From a virus (lineage: Duplodnaviria; Heunggongvirae; Uroviricota; Caudoviricetes), in IMG/VR virus record IMGVR_UViG_2667527789_000016: a DNA stretch of 4,955 bases; one strand, given 5' to 3'. Shown here in pieces: positions 1 through 4,955 of the stretch (position 1 is its first letter; every line of letters begins with the position of its first letter). The notes under the pieces were generated by a model that saw nothing but the letters and a program-made list of their open reading frames with translations, was not told the DNA's origin and made no database searches. The translations under genes were made by a program, and so were the position numbers.

Positions 1-1425
1 GTGGAATTATTCAGATTCACTAAAGTAAAAATTGCAGAACTGCCAACGCCGGAGCATGGGCAGGCCGAATATGGTGATACGGAGGTTAACGGGCTGCGTG
101 TCCGTGTAGGTTCGTCAGGTGTGAAAAGTTTCTGCATTTCCCGTAAGCGTAACGGAAAATTTATTCGTGCAACGCTGGGGCGTTTTCCTGATCTGAGTGT
201 GGACAATGCCAGGGCTAAAGCTATGGAGCTTCTCGGAGAAGTAGCCACAACGGGGATAAATCCGAACACAGCGAAACGCATGAACAACAAGGCCATGATA
301 ACGCTGAGTGAGGCACTTGAAGCCTACATAAAAAATCGTGGCCACCGTCTTAAACCCGCCACAGAAAAACAGTACCGCAGCATATTACAGAATTATTCCG
401 GTGACTGGATGGCGCATACCCTCGCTAGTATTTCCCGCGAACGTGTGGAACAACGGCATAAGGCCATCACTGATGGGGCTGTATGGTTCGGTGCTGATAA
501 AACCACGTTACGGGCTGGTGTTGGTACAGGAAGCAAGGCACAGGCCGATTTATGGGCGCGTGCGCTGCGTGCTGTGTGTCGGTTTGCGCATGATCATTAC
601 CGTGATGATGCGGGTAATACTCTTTTACCGGATCCGCCGACTCTGGTACTGAGCACCAAACGCCAGTGGCACGGAACGGTAAGAAAAACGGAACGTATCC
701 GTCTGCATGATTTTCCCCGTTGGTTTGCTGCTGTAGCTGCTGTACGTGACCAGGGCGAACAGGAAAGGGATGATATAGCGGTTACGGTATGTGATGCCGT
801 GGAAATGGCGCTTTTTACCGGACTGAGAAAATCAGAAATTTTTGGCCTTACGTGGGATCGCGTGAATATGGGCGGTCGTTTTTTCTGGATAGACACCACG
901 AAAAACGGGGATCCGCTCGAATTGCCGATTACTGATACGTTGCGGGAAATGTTCCGCCGCAGGCTGAAAATAAAAAACGCTGATGATGTTCTGGTGTTTC
1001 CTGGTGTGAAGGGAGTGATTCAGGAGACACGGCACATCATAGACCGGATAAGCGCGGCTACCGTTCCAGAGTCGAACGATGAAATGCTCTCCCCTGTACC
1101 ATTCAAATGGCACGATGCGCGCCGGACGTTCGGGACGGTTGCCGAACTGGTGGGCGTGGGTAATTACATCCTCAAGCGCCTGATGAATCACCGCACTATG
1201 CGAAGTGCTGACGTAACGCAGGGGTATTTACATTTTGGTGCTGATGAACTGCTGGAGCCAGCGTCACGGATAGAACGGGCAATTCTGGAGCATGCCGGGC
1301 TGGTGGAGAGTAAAAAATCTATCGATGCGCAATTGCTTTCTGCACTGGAGAGCATGGACGATGATGAAAAACGCCAATTAATTTTCAAAATCATAAACAA
1401 AAATTTAGAGGTATCGTCTAAATGA
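1..1425 (+). CDS. int: Tyrosine site-specific integrase (phage/P4-type, N-terminal arm-binding domain plus catalytic domain); possibly 5'-partial, GTG at position 1
   Basis: 474-aa ORF. The N-terminus (FTKVKIAELP...GLRVRVGSSGVKSF...RATLGRFPDLSVDNARAKA) resembles the arm-type DNA-binding domain of phage integrases. The C-terminal half carries the catalytic signature: R in TGLRKSE, H-x-x-R in KWHDARRTF, and a candidate catalytic Tyr in TQGYLHF. The true start may lie upstream of the window. Confidence 0.9.
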   Translation: MELFRFTKVKIAELPTPEHGQAEYGDTEVNGLRVRVGSSGVKSFCISRKRNGKFIRATLGRFPDLSVDNARAKAMELLGEVATTGINPNTAKRMNNKAMITLSEALEAYIKNRGHRLKPATEKQYRSILQNYSGDWMAHTLASISRERVEQRHKAITDGAVWFGADKTTLRAGVGTGSKAQADLWARALRAVCRFAHDHYRDDAGNTLLPDPPTLVLSTKRQWHGTVRKTERIRLHDFPRWFAAVAAVRDQGEQERDDIAVTVCDAVEMALFTGLRKSEIFGLTWDRVNMGGRFFWIDTTKNGDPLELPITDTLREMFRRRLKIKNADDVLVFPGVKGVIQETRHIIDRISAATVPESNDEMLSPVPFKWHDARRTFGTVAELVGVGNYILKRLMNHRTMRSADVTQGYLHFGADELLEPASRIERAILEHAGLVESKKSIDAQLLSALESMDDDEKRQLIFKIINKNLEVSSK

Positions 1426-2175: not shown

Positions 2176-2388
2176 GTGGAGTTACTTGTGAACCTAATCA
2201 ATTCTCAAGAAAAAATGACCCGCAAAGAAGCCGCCGAGCATTTGGGGGTAAGTGTCCAGACTCTTGCTAACTGGGCGCATACTGGCAAGGTAAAAATCCC
2301 TTTCCATAAGCTGGGGCGCAAAGTGCTGTATATGCGCTCTGATCTCGATACTTATCTTGCATCCACTCGCAGAACGCAGACAGCGTAA
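2176..2388 (+). CDS. Small HTH DNA-binding protein of the excisionase/AlpA/Vis type (start may be the in-frame ATG at 2215)
   Basis: The sequence TRKEAAEHLGVSVQTLANWAHTGKVKIPFHKLGRKVLYMRSDLDTYL fits the excisionase-family HTH pattern (helix-turn-helix, then a Gly-Arg wing, then an acidic DxxL motif). It lies immediately downstream of the integrase, as in many integrative elements. GTG 2176 has a weak AGG at 2168-2170; ATG 2215 has no clear SD. Confidence 0.75.
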   Translation: MELLVNLINSQEKMTRKEAAEHLGVSVQTLANWAHTGKVKIPFHKLGRKVLYMRSDLDTYLASTRRTQTA

Positions 2389-2408
2389 GGGGGGAGCGAT
2401 GCACATAA

Positions 2409-2434
2409 CAAAAAGCGCCCCGTTACCGGAGCGC
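2409..2434 (-). other. GC-rich hairpin (GCGCCCCG-TTAC-CGGAGCGC, 7 of 8 bp) with a U-run on the minus strand; terminator-like in minus orientation, possibly also serving the upstream plus-strand gene
   Basis: Stem 2415-2422 / 2427-2434. The plus strand has CAAAAA (2409-2414) before the stem, so the minus-strand RNA has stem followed by UUUUUG. Contains the CGCCCCGTTAC motif repeated at 2891-2923. Confidence 0.35.
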
Positions 2435-2530
2435 CCTTGCGAACAATTAACCTGCTGCGAAAAAATTGGATCAGTGCAGGGGAATTATATCAACTGTGTG
2501 AAGAAGCGCCACAATTGCCGGATAACAGGC

Positions 2531-2558
2531 AAAGAAAAGGCCACCTGTCACGGTGGCC
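2531..2558 (-). terminator. Rho-independent terminator of the minus-strand small gene
   Basis: Stem GGCCACC (2539-2545) / GGTGGCC (2552-2558) with a 6-nt loop. On the minus strand the stem is followed by TTTTCTTT (complement of 2531-2538). It sits about 30 nt downstream of the stop of the 2769..2590 gene. Confidence 0.55.
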
Positions 2559-2589
2559 AATGTGATCAGTGTGGTGGTTTGCTGGTGGA

Positions 2590-2769
2590 TTATTCCGCTT
2601 CTTTGGTCTTGCGGCGCTGGCGGCGTTTTATTTCGCCGCGCATGGCAGTAACGATAAATTGCGCGTCTGTTTCGTTTTCTTCTTTTACCAAATTCATTTC
2701 ACTTAAAACGTCTAGAGGTACTCTAGCTGTTTTTTGTTGTGACTTGTTGTTTGTTGTACCTGTTGGCAT
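2590..2769 (-). CDS. Small basic protein (59 aa), putative DNA-binding regulator of the element (candidate repressor); function unproven
   Basis: ATG (complement of 2767-2769) is preceded by AAGGAG at 8-nt spacing (complement of 2778-2783). Protein is MPTGTTNNKSQQKTARVPLDVLSEMNLVKEENETDAQFIVTAMRGEIKRRQRRKTKEAE with a strongly basic tail. It has its own terminator (2531-2558) and is divergent from the plus-strand operon. The longer 117-aa ORF (to 2943) would run through the operator and hairpin region and is not favoured. Confidence 0.6.
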   Translation of the reverse strand: MPTGTTNNKSQQKTARVPLDVLSEMNLVKEENETDAQFIVTAMRGEIKRRQRRKTKEAE

Positions 2770-2795
2770 CTCTGTTCTCCTTACTGTTAGGTGGT

Positions 2796-2835
2796 GTTCA
2801 GTATACGGAGAAAAAAAAATAAAAAAAGACTTGAA
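2796..2835 (-). promoter_or_regulatory. Candidate promoter for the minus-strand small gene (-10 TATACT, T-rich upstream tract)
   Basis: Minus-strand TATACT (complement of 2800-2805) lies about 30 nt upstream of the ATG. A long T-tract on the minus strand (plus-strand A-run 2809-2827) could act as an UP element. No good -35 hexamer, so this is weak. Confidence 0.3.
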
Positions 2836-2880
2836 GTGCAAGTCACCTAAAAGTAATCTAGATTTCAAGGTGACTTGCAC
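2836..2880. promoter_or_regulatory. Operator-like perfect inverted repeat GTGCAAGTCACC-N21-GGTGACTTGCAC with a perfect palindrome AATCTAGATT in the spacer
   Basis: Arms 2836-2847 and 2869-2880 are exact reverse complements (12/12). The spacer holds a 10-bp perfect palindrome at 2855-2864. It lies in the divergent intergenic region between the small regulator gene and the plus-strand operon. Confidence 0.45.
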
Positions 2881-2883
2881 CAA

Positions 2884-2923
2884 AAAGGCAACGCCCCTTA
2901 CTGTTGGGCCAGTAACGGGGCGT
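2884..2923 (-). other. Long GC hairpin (13-bp stem with one bulge, 6-nt loop) followed by a U-run on the minus strand; terminator-like or leader RNA structure
   Basis: ACGCCCCTTACTG (2891-2903) pairs with CAGTAACGGGGCGT (2910-2923). The plus strand has CAAAAAGGCA before the stem, giving UGCCUUUUUG after the stem on the minus strand. Shares the CGCCCCGTTAC motif with 2415-2434. Confidence 0.35.
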
Positions 2924-2959
2924 CTAACCACAAACGATAGCAATAGTATCGAGGTAGCT

Positions 2960-3166
2960 ATGTTAAATCATATCACACACCCGCAAGGGCGGGACTCACA
3001 CAACCTGAATAAATACATCTGGCGTTTTATCGCCCTGAGCACGGCACAACCGCGCGTAATCCACATCGAGGCCACCAGCGAACAGGAAGCACGCCAGCAA
3101 TCCCCGGCTGGCTGCGTGATGGTATTCGCTGCCCGTATTCGCCAGGAGGTAGGCCATGTGCAATAA
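2960..3166 (+). CDS. Hypothetical small protein (68 aa), first gene of the plus-strand operon
   Basis: ATG 2960 with GAGG at 2951-2954. It is the in-frame tail of the 2357..3166 ORF after excluding the part that overlaps the regulatory region. Its stop overlaps the next gene start by 11 nt. Confidence 0.45.
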   Translation: MLNHITHPQGRDSHNLNKYIWRFIALSTAQPRVIHIEATSEQEARQQSPAGCVMVFAARIRQEVGHVQ

Positions 3167-3395
3167 AACCACACCGGACGCAGCAGCCGCCGCGCTCACT
3201 ACGCTGATGCACGCGCTTATTGATATTTCTGTTATTGCTGACATGGCGCATAAGCACGCCACCAGTGAAACAGAATATGCAGGGGCTTTCGTTCCTCATT
3301 CGCTGGCGGTTATGCAACTTAGTGCTGATATGGCTCTGAATGAGGCCAAAGCTATCCTGATTGCTGATTGTGAAAATGGGGGGGGTTATGCGTGA
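3156..3395 (+). CDS. Hypothetical small protein (79 aa)
   Basis: ATG 3156 preceded by AGGAGG (3144-3149) at 6-nt spacing. Overlaps the upstream and downstream ORFs in a coupled arrangement. Confidence 0.55.
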   Translation: MCNKTTPDAAAAALTTLMHALIDISVIADMAHKHATSETEYAGAFVPHSLAVMQLSADMALNEAKAILIADCENGGGYA

Positions 3396-3609
3396 TGATC
3401 GTTTTAATTCCCTGAAACAGGAATTTTCCGGCGTTCCTGATGATGCGGCTGATGCGCTTTCGTCAATATCTGAAATTATGCGGGTGGCTTTTTTCTTTCT
3501 TTGCACTGATGAGCACAGAGATACAGGGCTAAATATTCTTGATATTGCCGCTAACTATGCTGATTTCGTGACAGAGGTTATTTTAAGAAAAGCGACGGAC
3601 GGGGATTAA
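3388..3609 (+). CDS. Hypothetical small protein (73 aa from ATG 3388; alternative starts at 3376 or TTG 3361)
   Basis: ATG 3388 overlaps the stop of the upstream ORF (ATGCGTGA) and follows a G-run (3378-3385). The stop at 3607-3609 is one nt before the next start. Confidence 0.5.
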   Translation: MRDDRFNSLKQEFSGVPDDAADALSSISEIMRVAFFFLCTDEHRDTGLNILDIAANYADFVTEVILRKATDGD

Positions 3610-3610
3610 T

Positions 3611-3844
3611 ATGCGTGATATTTACCACGAAACAACAGATCGCGTATTTCTTGCACTTTCTCACAGTGAAAATATGATGGAAATATTGCGCATATGGCTT
3701 GAAACACTTGGCGACAATGAACGCGACAAACAAAAATCAAGAATTGTCACGGCATTAATAACGCTTCTTGAGCCTGTAATAATGGAAATACAAGAAATAG
3801 ACCAATTGCACGACAGATATAACGAACAGCACACCGGAGAATAA
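3611..3844 (+). CDS. Hypothetical small protein (77 aa)
   Basis: ATG 3611 preceded by GGGGA (3601-3605). Shares the initiation context GGGG-TTA-ATGCGTGAT with the preceding ORF. Confidence 0.55.
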   Translation: MRDIYHETTDRVFLALSHSENMMEILRIWLETLGDNERDKQKSRIVTALITLLEPVIMEIQEIDQLHDRYNEQHTGE

Positions 3845-3849
3845 AAATA

Positions 3850-4149
3850 ATGAAACTTAAATATTCTGGCTTAACTGCCAGTGGCAACACTCACCCTAAA
3901 TTTACGCGCGGTGATATTTACCGCGACCAGTACGGCGGCACGGTAATGATTAAGGGCGTGGCGGGACGGTGCGTAACTTACCGCCGTGAAGGTTACGAAT
4001 ATGATTGCGTGATGCCTGTTTATCAGTTCCGGCGTGATTTTTCTCTGGTACAGACCGCGCCGCATAACGTGCCCACCAGCAACGCCAGGGCACGGGCAAA
4101 CATCCAGAAGCTGAAAACCATGATTAACGGATTCAGGGGTAAACAATGA
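3850..4149 (+). CDS. Hypothetical protein (99 aa)
   Basis: ATG 3850 with GGAG at 3836-3839. Its stop overlaps the start of the downstream ATPase gene (ATGA at 4146-4149). Confidence 0.55.
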   Translation: MKLKYSGLTASGNTHPKFTRGDIYRDQYGGTVMIKGVAGRCVTYRREGYEYDCVMPVYQFRRDFSLVQTAPHNVPTSNARARANIQKLKTMINGFRGKQ

Positions 4150-4955
4150 AACTGGCACCGAACGTAAAACGATTACCGAAAGACAAATACACCGATGCGA
4201 TTATTTTTGCGGGTATTGATGCTCACTCATTCGCAGAGCATTACATCATTGCACAGGCCAAAAAAGCAGGCGATCCAGTCCCTCCCGTTTATCTGGGGCG
4301 TTATCAGTTAAGCGAACTGGATAACCTCCAGATTGTTGATGATGGGCGATACAGGGCGACGGTGATACGCGCCGGAAATATTGAAGAGCCGCAGCTGTTA
4401 ACCATCGCCACGAAACTGGCGATCGCCGGAGTCCAGGAGGCGCGGCTACTTTCTGAAAATTTCGAATTGCTGGAGGAATGGAGCGACCAGCTTCCACGGC
4501 TTAGGGAGGCATGGGAACGCGGGGAAAGCCTGGTCATGAAAAAAATCCCCCAGCGAAAAACCACGCTACCGATGAGCGTTGGATCTACCGGATACGACAC
4601 ACAGCTTGATTACGTGGTAAAGGGGATTATTCCGGCATCGTCGCTTTGCAGCATATACGGGGCGAGCGGTTCCTATAAATCATTCCTTGCCGGATCGTGG
4701 GCGTGTCACGTTTCCACGGGCCGCCAGTGGGGAGGCCGCAGGGTGGCGCATGGCGCTGTTCTCTATGTGGTTGGTGAAGGCGGTATCGGCGTTCCGCGTC
4801 GTGTAAAGGCCTGGGAGGTTGTGCACGGTGAGCAGGTGAAAAATCTGTATCTGGTAAACCGTCCCATCTTTCCGGCTGTCCCGCTTGATGTTGATGAACT
4901 GATTATTGCTGCCAGTCAGGTGGAGAGGGAAACAGGTAAACCTGTTCGCATGATT
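4146..4955 (+). CDS. RepA-like AAA_25 family P-loop ATPase (putative replicative helicase of the element), 3'-partial, preceded by an uncharacterised N-terminal domain of about 125 aa
   Basis: ATG 4146 with AGGGG at 4135-4139. The open frame runs to the window end (270 codons). Residues DYVVKGIIPASSLCSIYGASGSYKSFLAGSWACHVSTGRQWGGRRVAHGAVLYVVGEGG match the RepA/AAA_25 pattern (a 'DY/WLVKGLLP...' motif, then a Walker A-like GxxGxxKS, then '...VLYV..E'). Family assignment is from memory of that pattern, not a search. Confidence 0.8.
   Translation, partial: MKLAPNVKRLPKDKYTDAIIFAGIDAHSFAEHYIIAQAKKAGDPVPPVYLGRYQLSELDNLQIVDDGRYRATVIRAGNIEEPQLLTIATKLAIAGVQEARLLSENFELLEEWSDQLPRLREAWERGESLVMKKIPQRKTTLPMSVGSTGYDTQLDYVVKGIIPASSLCSIYGASGSYKSFLAGSWACHVSTGRQWGGRRVAHGAVLYVVGEGGIGVPRRVKAWEVVHGEQVKNLYLVNRPIFPAVPLDVDELIIAASQVERETGKPVRMI

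Follow-up and report, generated by a model that had tools for sequence, protein, structure and literature searches.

Closest described systems

Phage-inducible chromosomal islands (PICIs) of Escherichia coli move virulence and defence genes. The stretch of DNA analyzed here, which covers 4,955 nucleotides of the IMG/VR virus record IMGVR_UViG_2667527789_000016 (hereafter the window), appears to come from one such island, and its closest described counterparts are EcCICFT073, which is the prototype PICI of Gram-negative bacteria, the O157:H7 island OI-51/CP-933C, the left operon of the satellite P4, and the immI operon of phage P1. Helper-phage induction and transfer have been demonstrated for EcCICFT073, helper-phage activation of alpA has been reported, and RgdR is encoded by every E. 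coli PICI analyzed in the same work (PMC6092414). The corresponding block of EcCICFT073 consists of an Icd-like gene, four hypothetical small open reading frames (ORFs), and a DUF4222 gene, after which comes a primase gene. The P4 left operon is made up of vis, eta/kil with the CI RNA, epsilon, orf151, orf106, and alpha, the last of which encodes a primase. A passage of PMC10111431 that cites Forti et al. 1999 describes P4 Kil as a truncated form of Eta, locates a constitutive promoter within eta, and states that translation of Eta blocks termination and so leads to read-through from the upstream promoter; PICI 'Bro zones' are described in the same paper. The P1 immI operon comprises the c4 RNA, icd, and ant1/2. 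It has also been reported that the O157 protein ECs1581, named RgdR, activates LEE1 and type III secretion, represses motility, and binds DNA without specificity, that the CFT073 protein C1493 shares this activity (type III secretion activated, motility repressed), and that single RgdR residues (20, 35) alter the outcome (PMC3378721). Our literature search found no papers dissecting the genes between alpA and the replicase gene of E. coli PICIs.

The window compared with these systems

We consider it likely that this stretch covers the half nearest the promoter of the early (replication) operon in a PICI of the EcCICFT073 type, with a layout that mirrors the P4 left operon and with the stepwise mechanism set out below. 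Like the window, EcCICFT073 and the O157:H7 island OI-51/CP-933C, which occupies the same site as EcCICFT073, carry an integrase gene (int), alpA, a minus-strand YlcI/YnfO gene, an Icd-like gene, small ORFs, a DUF4222/RgdR gene, and a replicase gene. The five small proteins of the window are 95% (ORF1), 57.5% (ORF2), 78% (ORF3), 84% (ORF4), and 90% (ORF5) identical to the EcCICFT073 copies. A first-pass annotation, made from the letters of the window alone, had assigned these ORFs to the early region of a phage satellite, upstream of a replication ATPase; the identical architecture of EcCICFT073, the protein identities of 57-95%, and the RepA helicase gene that starts at 4146 bear out both statements. 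The islands also differ. EcCICFT073, unlike the window, has a primase-type replicase and carries one additional small ORF between the Icd-like gene and ORF2; the O157 island shares the RepA-type helicase with the window, but its ORF2 and ORF3 are fused (G7, see below); and the window, unlike both islands, has another integrase, another alpA allele, and an additional low-GC gene (1422-2042). Two of the features by which a PICI is recognized are found in the window, namely an integrase gene at the left end, then an AlpA-type regulator gene, both in the same orientation as the operon, and a replicase of its own located 3' of a small-ORF block that includes RgdR. As far as its genes tell, the window corresponds to the left arm of a PICI of the EcCICFT073 type.

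The P4 left operon resembles the window in that an AlpA/Vis-type gene is directly followed by a long frame with an Icd/Kil-family C-terminal part, a promoter lies inside that long frame, and several small genes and a replicase gene come next. It differs in its control, which in P4 is exerted by the CI (C4-family) RNA and seqA, whereas the window has a divergent YlcI-type gene and an operator. The P1 immI operon is similar to the window in that a small Icd protein is encoded by the first, translationally coupled ORF; unlike immI, the window has neither a c4 RNA nor a downstream antirepressor gene, and the genes that follow are different.

Five small coupled genes precede the replicase gene

The genes of the coupled series are the following:

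2960-3166, plus strand: ORF1, 68 amino acids, pI 9.3; Shine-Dalgarno (SD) sequence GAGG at 2951-2954
3156-3395, plus strand: ORF2, 79 amino acids, pI 4.75; SD AGGAGG at 3144-3149; 11-nucleotide overlap with ORF1
3388-3609, plus strand: ORF3, 73 amino acids, pI 4.3; the G8 run at 3378-3385 is its SD
3611-3844, plus strand: ORF4, 77 amino acids, pI 4.8; 1-nucleotide gap after ORF3
3850-4149, plus strand: ORF5, 99 amino acids, pI 10.1; 5-nucleotide gap after ORF4
4146-4955, plus strand: 5' part of a RepA-family (AAA_25) replicative helicase gene (PF13481, 4.5e-21; phrog_2850, 2e-100)

Read against the sequence, the coordinates, overlaps, and gaps that the first-pass annotation had given for the five ORFs are all correct, and the plausible SD that it had seen for each is a purine-rich sequence present before every start. 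The ORF2 stop and the ORF3 start both lie within ATGCGTGA at 3388-3395, and the ATPase gene overlaps the end of ORF5 through ATGA at 4146. This gene, whose product is annotated as 'helicase RepA family protein' in the relatives, is the final member of the coupled series and continues beyond the end of the window.

We evaluated the conservation of the block in 80 IMG/VR loci retrieved with ORF3. The order ORF1-ORF2-ORF3-ORF4-ORF5-replicase is kept in 80/80 of them, with all five ORFs intact, and lengths are nearly fixed: ORF3 has 73 or 77 amino acids in 80/82 loci, ORF4 has 77 in 80/81, and ORF5 has 99 in 74/78. The starts are ATG, for ORF3 in all 82 loci. The junction types are conserved as well, since the ORF4-ORF5 gap of 5 nucleotides is found in 74/76 loci and the ORF5-replicase ATGA overlap in 75/76; the 11-nucleotide ORF1-ORF2 overlap occurs in 40 loci, the remaining ones holding at least one additional small gene inserted there, and ORF3 and ORF4 meet either in an 8-nucleotide overlap (ATGCGTGA again; 47 loci) or across a 1-nucleotide gap (32 loci). 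Pairwise Nei-Gojobori ratios of nonsynonymous to synonymous substitution rates (dN/dS) are 0.35 for ORF1, 0.46 for ORF2, 0.38 for ORF3, 0.29 for ORF4, and 0.33 for ORF5, and the remaining five reading frames are closed by stops in most relatives. These results indicate that each of the five ORFs is a genuine, conserved gene coupled in translation to its neighbours, as the consistent plus-strand coupling had suggested in the first-pass annotation. A 159-amino-acid antisense ORF (3027-3506) was rejected as a gene, since it is not conserved in relatives. The exact sequences of all five proteins are already present in public collections.

The same annotation had warned that some individual calls might be wrong. 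All five genes hold, and two refinements were made to the models: the ORF1 ATG is an internal start inside a longer open frame (2399-3166), and the ORF2/ORF3 boundary is determined by a poly-G tract of variable length. Its view that none of the five is recognizable does not stand for ORF1 and ORF5, for which profile searches returned the named families NF033153 (Icd-like) and Pfam DUF4222; ORF2-ORF4 match only PHROG families to which no function is assigned, and profile and structure searches gave no informative match for them.

ORF1 belongs to the Icd/Kil family and ends a longer frame

ORF1 scores 71 bits against the NCBIfam model NF033153 (Icd-like; cut-off 25), for which P1 Icd obtains 52.6 bits and the P4 Kil region 73.9 bits. 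In a pairwise alignment, it is 37% identical to P1 Icd over 43 amino acids (E 4e-6). Moreover, phrog_1743 is common to ORF1 and the P4 Kil region, and the old P4 "cI gene product" coding sequence has an Icd-like domain at residues 85-132, its C-terminal part being P4 Kil. These matches argue firmly that ORF1 belongs to the Icd/Kil family. A tblastn search with ORF1 against phage records gave one match, and a sequence search of the PDB gave none.

The frame in which ORF1 lies extends far upstream:

2399-3166, plus strand: eta-like frame, 255 amino acids; its last 68 codons are ORF1

The ATG at 2399 is placed 11 nucleotides past the alpA stop and has the SD GGGGGGAG (2389-2396). The frame is open from 2294 and for 187 codons 5' of the ORF1 ATG, and it runs antisense across ylcI and then through the promoter, the operator, and the leader. 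In related loci, it likewise starts directly after AlpA-like ORFs. The 250 codons 5' of ORF1 are stop-free in the ORF1 frame in 37/72 related loci, the other two frames containing 12-14 stops; when only the gene-free spacer between ylcI and ORF1 is considered, the ORF1 frame is stop-free in 22/37 unique sequences and the other frames in 0/37 and 1/37. The translated sequence of the frame resembles antisense junk, and because the stop-free frame is conserved all the same, selection seems to act on its translatability and not on its peptide. ORF1 closes a longer reading frame from which stops are kept out and which, we infer, is translated; P4 kil lies within eta in the same way.

Two stretches within this frame deserve mention on their own account. 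The N-terminal part of the eta-like frame (2399-2569; equivalents at 14399-14569 in locus L002 and at 4655-5248 in L140) carries in the relatives the NCBI label 'Icd-like pseudogene missing its C-terminus', and a terminator-like hairpin at 2411-2438, also inside the frame, is conserved among loci.

ORF1 shares with P4 kil its place as the first gene behind a promoter, here a predicted one, and its nesting in a longer upstream frame that contains this promoter; the C4/CI antisense RNA that lies directly upstream of such genes was not found in the window. An Rfam scan of the window gave no match to RF01695 (C4) or isrK even at E<=1, and no family at all apart from a terminator-like isrD match at E 0.5. 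In P4 and in five of the PICI loci scanned, isrK (seqA-like) and C4 (CI RNA) were identified by Rfam, in the PICI loci just 5' of the Icd-like gene, and C4-like sequence was found by blastn in 15 of the related loci searched, before their Icd-like gene; the Rfam scan detected neither isrK nor C4 in the CFT073 and O157 islands. Since the C4-bearing loci have the window-type leader and the first 17 ORF1 codons 5' of the isrK/C4 segment, the window-type ORF1 looks like the version without this segment. The loci with P4-type isrK and C4, a minority of the related PICIs, are L009 (e.g. 2748-2933), L012, L031, L033, and L081, where the pair stands between the window-type leader and the Icd-like gene. 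In L033, C4 is present twice, together with a match to the c4-a1b1 target.

A candidate repressor, operator, and structured leader precede ORF1

The region upstream of ORF1 contains the following elements:

2590-2769, minus strand: YlcI/YnfO-family gene (ylcI), 59 amino acids, basic; NCBIfam NF041551, phrog_949
between ylcI and ORF1: spacer of 190 nucleotides
2831-2859, plus strand: inferred sigma-70 operon promoter (TTGAAG, 17 nucleotides, TAATCT)
2836-2880: operator, a perfect 13-nucleotide inverted repeat, GTGCAAGTCACCT (2836-2848) and AGGTGACTTGCAC (2868-2880), with a 19-nucleotide spacer
2891-2924, plus strand: leader RNA hairpin (leader 2891-2938), followed by the near-invariant UCUAACCA(C/A)(C/A)AAC

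A TTGAc/a box and a TAnnnT box located 16-18 nucleotides downstream of it keep their position across spacer and operator variants that are otherwise different. Because it would lie inside the eta-like frame, the promoter of the window is analogous to PLE of P4. The operator repeat spans the promoter spacer and the predicted transcription start, and each spacer variant has its own repeats over the promoter, other loci having different repeats in the same place. The half-site of the window occurs twice in 3/3 loci that encode a YlcI with ≥90% identity to the one in the window, and it occurs in 0/54 others; these three loci carry a different ORF1 allele. As the half-site tracks the YlcI allele and not the ORF1 allele, YlcI and the operator form a module. 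The YlcI product matches NCBIfam NF041551 (5e-17) and phrog_949 (1e-18), other YlcI alleles are annotated as HicB-family antitoxin, and we read the sequence as that of a probable ribbon-helix-helix protein; a PDB sequence search with YlcI gave no match. The YlcI-type protein is likely the repressor of the operon promoter, and we propose it as the candidate. Its gene has a minus-strand terminator at 2558-2539.

The leader hairpin is supported by covariation. In an alignment of 27 sequences, 98.6% of the hairpin cells are paired, compared with 84% in shuffled alignments, and 0/500 shuffles reach the observed values; compensatory changes are seen in 5/8 hairpin pairs. The hairpin matches no Rfam family, and no antisense partner of the invariant motif UCUAACCA was found within the window. 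A long-range pairing of 2416-2429 with 2909-2922 was also considered and is probably due to chance, since L002, the one relative inspected by eye, retains the left arm but differs in its leader hairpin.

ORF5 is an RgdR-family protein

ORF5 reaches 82.1 bits against Pfam PF13973 (DUF4222; cut-off 27), and its translation has RGD at residues 20-22, K35, and R61. It is 90% identical over 99 amino acids to CFT073 C1493 (L084, 9946-10242). On this evidence, ORF5 is a small basic regulator of the RgdR (DUF4222) family, and by orthology with C1493 the regulation of LEE1 and motility is a candidate activity of ORF5 itself. A PDB sequence search gave no match. A scan of genome contigs with ORF5 matched Shigella flexneri and E. 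albertii only, which gives little information on breadth. The RepA proteins that appear in the 90% cluster of ORF5 are a clustering artefact, since they contain no ORF5 sequence.

ORF2, ORF3, and ORF4 are acidic orphans

The three middle proteins have pI values of 4.3-4.8. ORF2 matches phrog_5146 and the N-terminal half of phrog_2512, ORF3 matches phrog_24341 and the C-terminal half of phrog_2512, and ORF4 matches phrog_2196 (1e-38), all of them families without an assigned function. Their homologues, 275 of them from E. coli in the case of ORF2, come almost entirely from E. coli and Shigella, and the ORF4 profile retrieved only 11 clusters among 1.84 billion cluster representatives. The AlphaFold2 (AF2) model of ORF2 has helices at 9-37 and 39-73 with a predicted local distance difference test (pLDDT) score of ~65, that of ORF4 is a two-helix hairpin (helices 2-32 and 37-75; pLDDT 91.7), and that of the fused ORF2-ORF3 (P0009) is unusable at pLDDT 52. 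Foldseek comparisons of the ORF4 model with the PDB and BFVD returned generic two-helix hairpins, none at E<=0.001, and PDB sequence searches with ORF2 and ORF3 gave no match. We describe ORF2-ORF4 as acidic, predicted helical, Escherichia-restricted orphans. A common origin of the three was rejected, with hhalign probabilities <1%.

It is possible, if doubtful, that ORF2-ORF4, and perhaps the whole block, are counter-defence or helper-manipulating effectors, such as a P4 epsilon-like derepressor of the helper prophage or inhibitors of host defence, and not general factors for host take-over; roles of this kind had been raised in the first-pass annotation. Small, acidic, helical proteins whose diverged alleles reassort freely are what would be expected if they were aimed at variable external targets. 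In addition, ORF2 occupies the position that epsilon has in P4, and its invariant PH...D..LNE motif aligns weakly with epsilon (hhalign E 0.002, probability 13.6%). This similarity falls under any accepted threshold and the two proteins have no PHROG in common, so that it is a weak lead and not a finding; none of ORF2-ORF5 shows significant homology to P4 epsilon, orf151, or orf106. PADLOC gave no match for any of the five ORFs, dN/dS is <1 throughout, and the helpers of E. coli PICIs are lambdoid phages, for which induction of alpA has been reported and not derepression through the island (PMC6092414).

Proposed mechanism of the early operon

Under the reading that we favour, an early operon of a PICI with a P4-like layout, the operon promoter (2831-2859) would be shut in the rest state by the YlcI-type repressor bound to the 13-nucleotide inverted repeat. 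A helper phage would switch on alpA, as reported for EcCICFT073, and ribosomes leaving alpA would restart at the ATG at 2399 and translate the eta-like frame, which would keep read-through transcripts from being terminated, an effect demonstrated for P4 eta. The operon would therefore have two entries, read-through from alpA by way of the eta-like frame and its own operator-controlled promoter, and start/stop coupling would pass expression along the chain to the helicase. The Icd/Kil-like ORF1 protein may arrest division or be toxic, as shown for P1 Icd and P4 Kil; the basic RgdR-like ORF5 may bind DNA and retune host transcription, as shown for ECs1581 and C1493; and the three acidic hairpin proteins may, at a guess, bind host or helper proteins.

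It is important to consider several points that weigh against this proposal. It is drawn for this element from the sequence, and the AlpA step follows by analogy with EcCICFT073. The operon promoter is deduced from positional conservation alone, and a strict consensus scan does not call it because its -10 box is weak. The eta-like frame is broken in 15/37 unique spacers and hence is not indispensable, and in the window any reading of it has to proceed against a convergent ylcI gene and a pair of terminator-like hairpins. The activities reported for RgdR concern host traits and not the life cycle of a satellite. Finally, ORF2-ORF4 have no match in Pfam or NCBIfam, nor any informative match to a family, structure, or defence database.

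A different function for the same arrangement is suggested by a prophage locus of the strain ECOR61, which is reported to arrest growth upon expression of a phage accessory gene (preprint 10.1101/2023.04.06.535777); this locus may be an operon of the same kind that works by abortive infection. By extension, the block and the replicase would be a module for abortive infection (programmed cell death) in which the Icd-like killer is triggered by incoming phage proteins, and a long Icd-like frame of this kind is present in the window. We find this rather unlikely: the effect of the ECOR61 locus was weak when reconstituted, and the window carries a RepA helicase and not a primase. It is also compatible with the early-operon proposal rather than exclusive of it.

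The alleles of the operon reassort freely

All six genes occur in two to four diverged allelic forms, and the adjusted mutual information is ~0 for all pairs of allele classes, replicase type included. For ORF1-ORF5 against the replicase type, which was divided into RepA-helicase at 99%, a 68% class, and primase, the values are 0.01-0.06, and one ORF5 allele precedes all three types. Covariation of the small-ORF alleles with replicase type or with each other, which we had considered, is therefore absent, and this pattern fits independent modules that recombine at conserved junctions. Proteins resembling deletions between the start repeats ATGCGTGAT exist, and for this reason the junction motif may be the recombination point between modules, as the sequences suggest. 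The repeat ATGCGTGAT opens both ORF3 (3388-3396) and ORF4 (3611-3619), and the database proteins that resemble such deletions are P0173 and P0294.

These results bear on the idea, also among the suggestions of the first-pass annotation, that the small proteins are replication accessories dedicated to the replicase encoded after them, for example by loading the helicase, binding the origin, or partnering a primase. The small ORFs stand directly 5' of the replicase gene and are translationally coupled to it, the ATGA overlap being kept nearly everywhere; yet alleles that do not covary with replicase type argue against replicase-specific roles, as does the finding of the same ORF5 allele before every type, and we regard the idea as very unlikely. 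As a separate observation, replicase residues 1-121 (4146-4508) share 40-48% identity with the N-terminal end of primase-type replicases from other islands, which suggests that a shared N-terminal domain may be carried on different enzymatic bodies.

A poly-G tract sets the boundary between ORF2 and ORF3

One further feature was identified at the ORF2/ORF3 junction:

3378-3385, plus strand: poly-G tract (G8), which doubles as the ORF3 SD

The sequence from the end of ORF2 to the start of ORF3 is AATGGGGGGGGTTATGCGTGA. We compiled the tract lengths as follows:

IMG/VR loci and window (approximate): G7 20, G8 22, G9 13, G10 3, G11 1, interrupted 7
52 metagenome contigs: G7 10, G8 27, G9 12, G10 1, interrupted 2
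Pooled, 115 loci with 200-nucleotide flanks: G7 29, G8 48, G9 25, G10 4, G11 1, interrupted 8

Eight groups with identical flanks (200+200 nucleotides) are polymorphic in tract length. With G7 or G10, ORF3 is in the ORF2 frame and a fusion of 150-152 amino acids results; with G8 or G11, the genes are split with the ATGCGTGA overlap; and with G9, ORF2 is lengthened by nine codons. Among isolate genomes with this allele, the 79-amino-acid form was found in 292 contigs, the 86-amino-acid form in 155, and the 150-amino-acid fusion in 113. Exact G7, G8, and G9 junctions exist in complete genomes, where they are annotated as one coding sequence (G7) or two (G8, G9); since partial matches and clonal oversampling distort the counts by identity band in complete genomes, we relied solely on the presence of exact full-length matches. 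The O157:H7 island that we examined has G7 and is fused. ORF3 is also found alone behind a different upstream gene in 11-14 loci, and that gene ends in a G-run too.

One defining property of contingency loci was observed in this tract: it is a homopolymer of at least seven bases that varies in length among sequences which are otherwise the same, and this variation shifts the reading frame. As in the poly-G contingency loci of Neisseria, Campylobacter, and Klebsiella rmpA, the tract changes length faster than its flanks and alters the frame; unlike in those loci, no phase silences the downstream gene, because ORF3 has its own start, and the tract toggles between split, extended, and fused forms. 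The junction of icd and ant1 in P1 (L085, 3675-3692) uses the same device, a G-run with the overlapping start/stop CAGGGGGGTTTATGA. Soberly read, the tract is the ORF3 SD and a slippage hotspot in a layout that tolerates all three phases. That it is a genuine contingency switch, toggling a two-part early protein among a split state (G8, G11), a state extended at the C-terminus (G9), and a fused state (G7, G10), seems unlikely to us, and neutral slippage tolerated in all frames would explain the polymorphism equally well. As to programmed ribosomal frameshifting or transcriptional slippage, by which a split (G8) template could yield a fused product, a G-run is not known as a classical slippage motif of E. 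coli. If the switch were real, populations of the island would be heritably heterogeneous in an early function, possibly in helper or host specificity, given the position of ORF2 and its faint epsilon motif. Our literature search found no papers on homopolymer tracts in PICIs. The stop-free eta-like frame, together with a protein repressor that replaces the CI RNA of P4, would be a second, less novel variant feature.

That ORF2 and ORF3 are instead a single gene of ~150 amino acids, frameshifted and inactive in the window, is highly improbable, for although fused forms occur in 23/78 IMG/VR loci and in the O157:H7 island and make up phrog_2512, the split G8 state is the commonest (48/115 loci), ORF3 keeps its own ATG and a G-rich SD in 82/82 loci and also stands alone behind an unrelated gene, and both halves are under purifying selection in the split forms.

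The left end and distribution of the element

The genes at the left end of the window are the following:

1-1425, plus strand (that of the operon): tyrosine integrase gene, with Phage_integrase and Arm-DNA-bind_3 domains
1422-2042: gene for 206 amino acids, of low GC content (~30%), ATGA-coupled to the integrase gene
2176-2388, plus strand: AlpA-like regulator gene (HTH_17/excisionase family), with its stop at 2386-2388

The product of the 1422-2042 gene has a weak HTH_32 match and a PPPPP motif, and its cluster (40 members at 90% identity) takes in proteins of E. coli, Shigella, and Salmonella. This gene is probably cargo in a variable slot between int and alpA.

In a megablast search, segments of the window were found in 1809 of 5426 complete E. 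coli genomes, and in 0 of these 5426 did coverage of the window reach 80% or more; because no complete genome covers 80% of the window, the element is a mosaic. The annotated relatives are 10-15-kilobase islands with capsid, decoration, or small-terminase genes and without tail or lysis genes. The nearest ones (L001, L002, L084, and L140) have capsid, decoration, or terS genes, and the nearest relatives are located at tRNA-Pro, near ssrA, between roxA and phoQ (CFT073), and after roxA (O157).

Significance

The arrangement described here is that of known satellites, and named families account for two of the five proteins; our study does not overturn current views. E. coli PICIs, judging from the distribution of the segments of the window, occur in roughly one complete E. 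coli genome in three. For the genes between alpA and the replicase gene of such an island, our analysis fixes the gene models, connects the first gene with the kil/eta system of P4 and the icd system of P1, identifies the last one as the virulence regulator RgdR, and presents the middle three as narrow, freely reassorting orphans. In the O157:H7 island, from which RgdR was studied, ORF2 and ORF3 are fused. The main use of our analysis may be as a map for experiments, for which it offers several handles: a candidate repressor with its operator, a leader with RNA structure, a stop-free "translate-through" frame, and a mutable G-tract by which two genes become joined.

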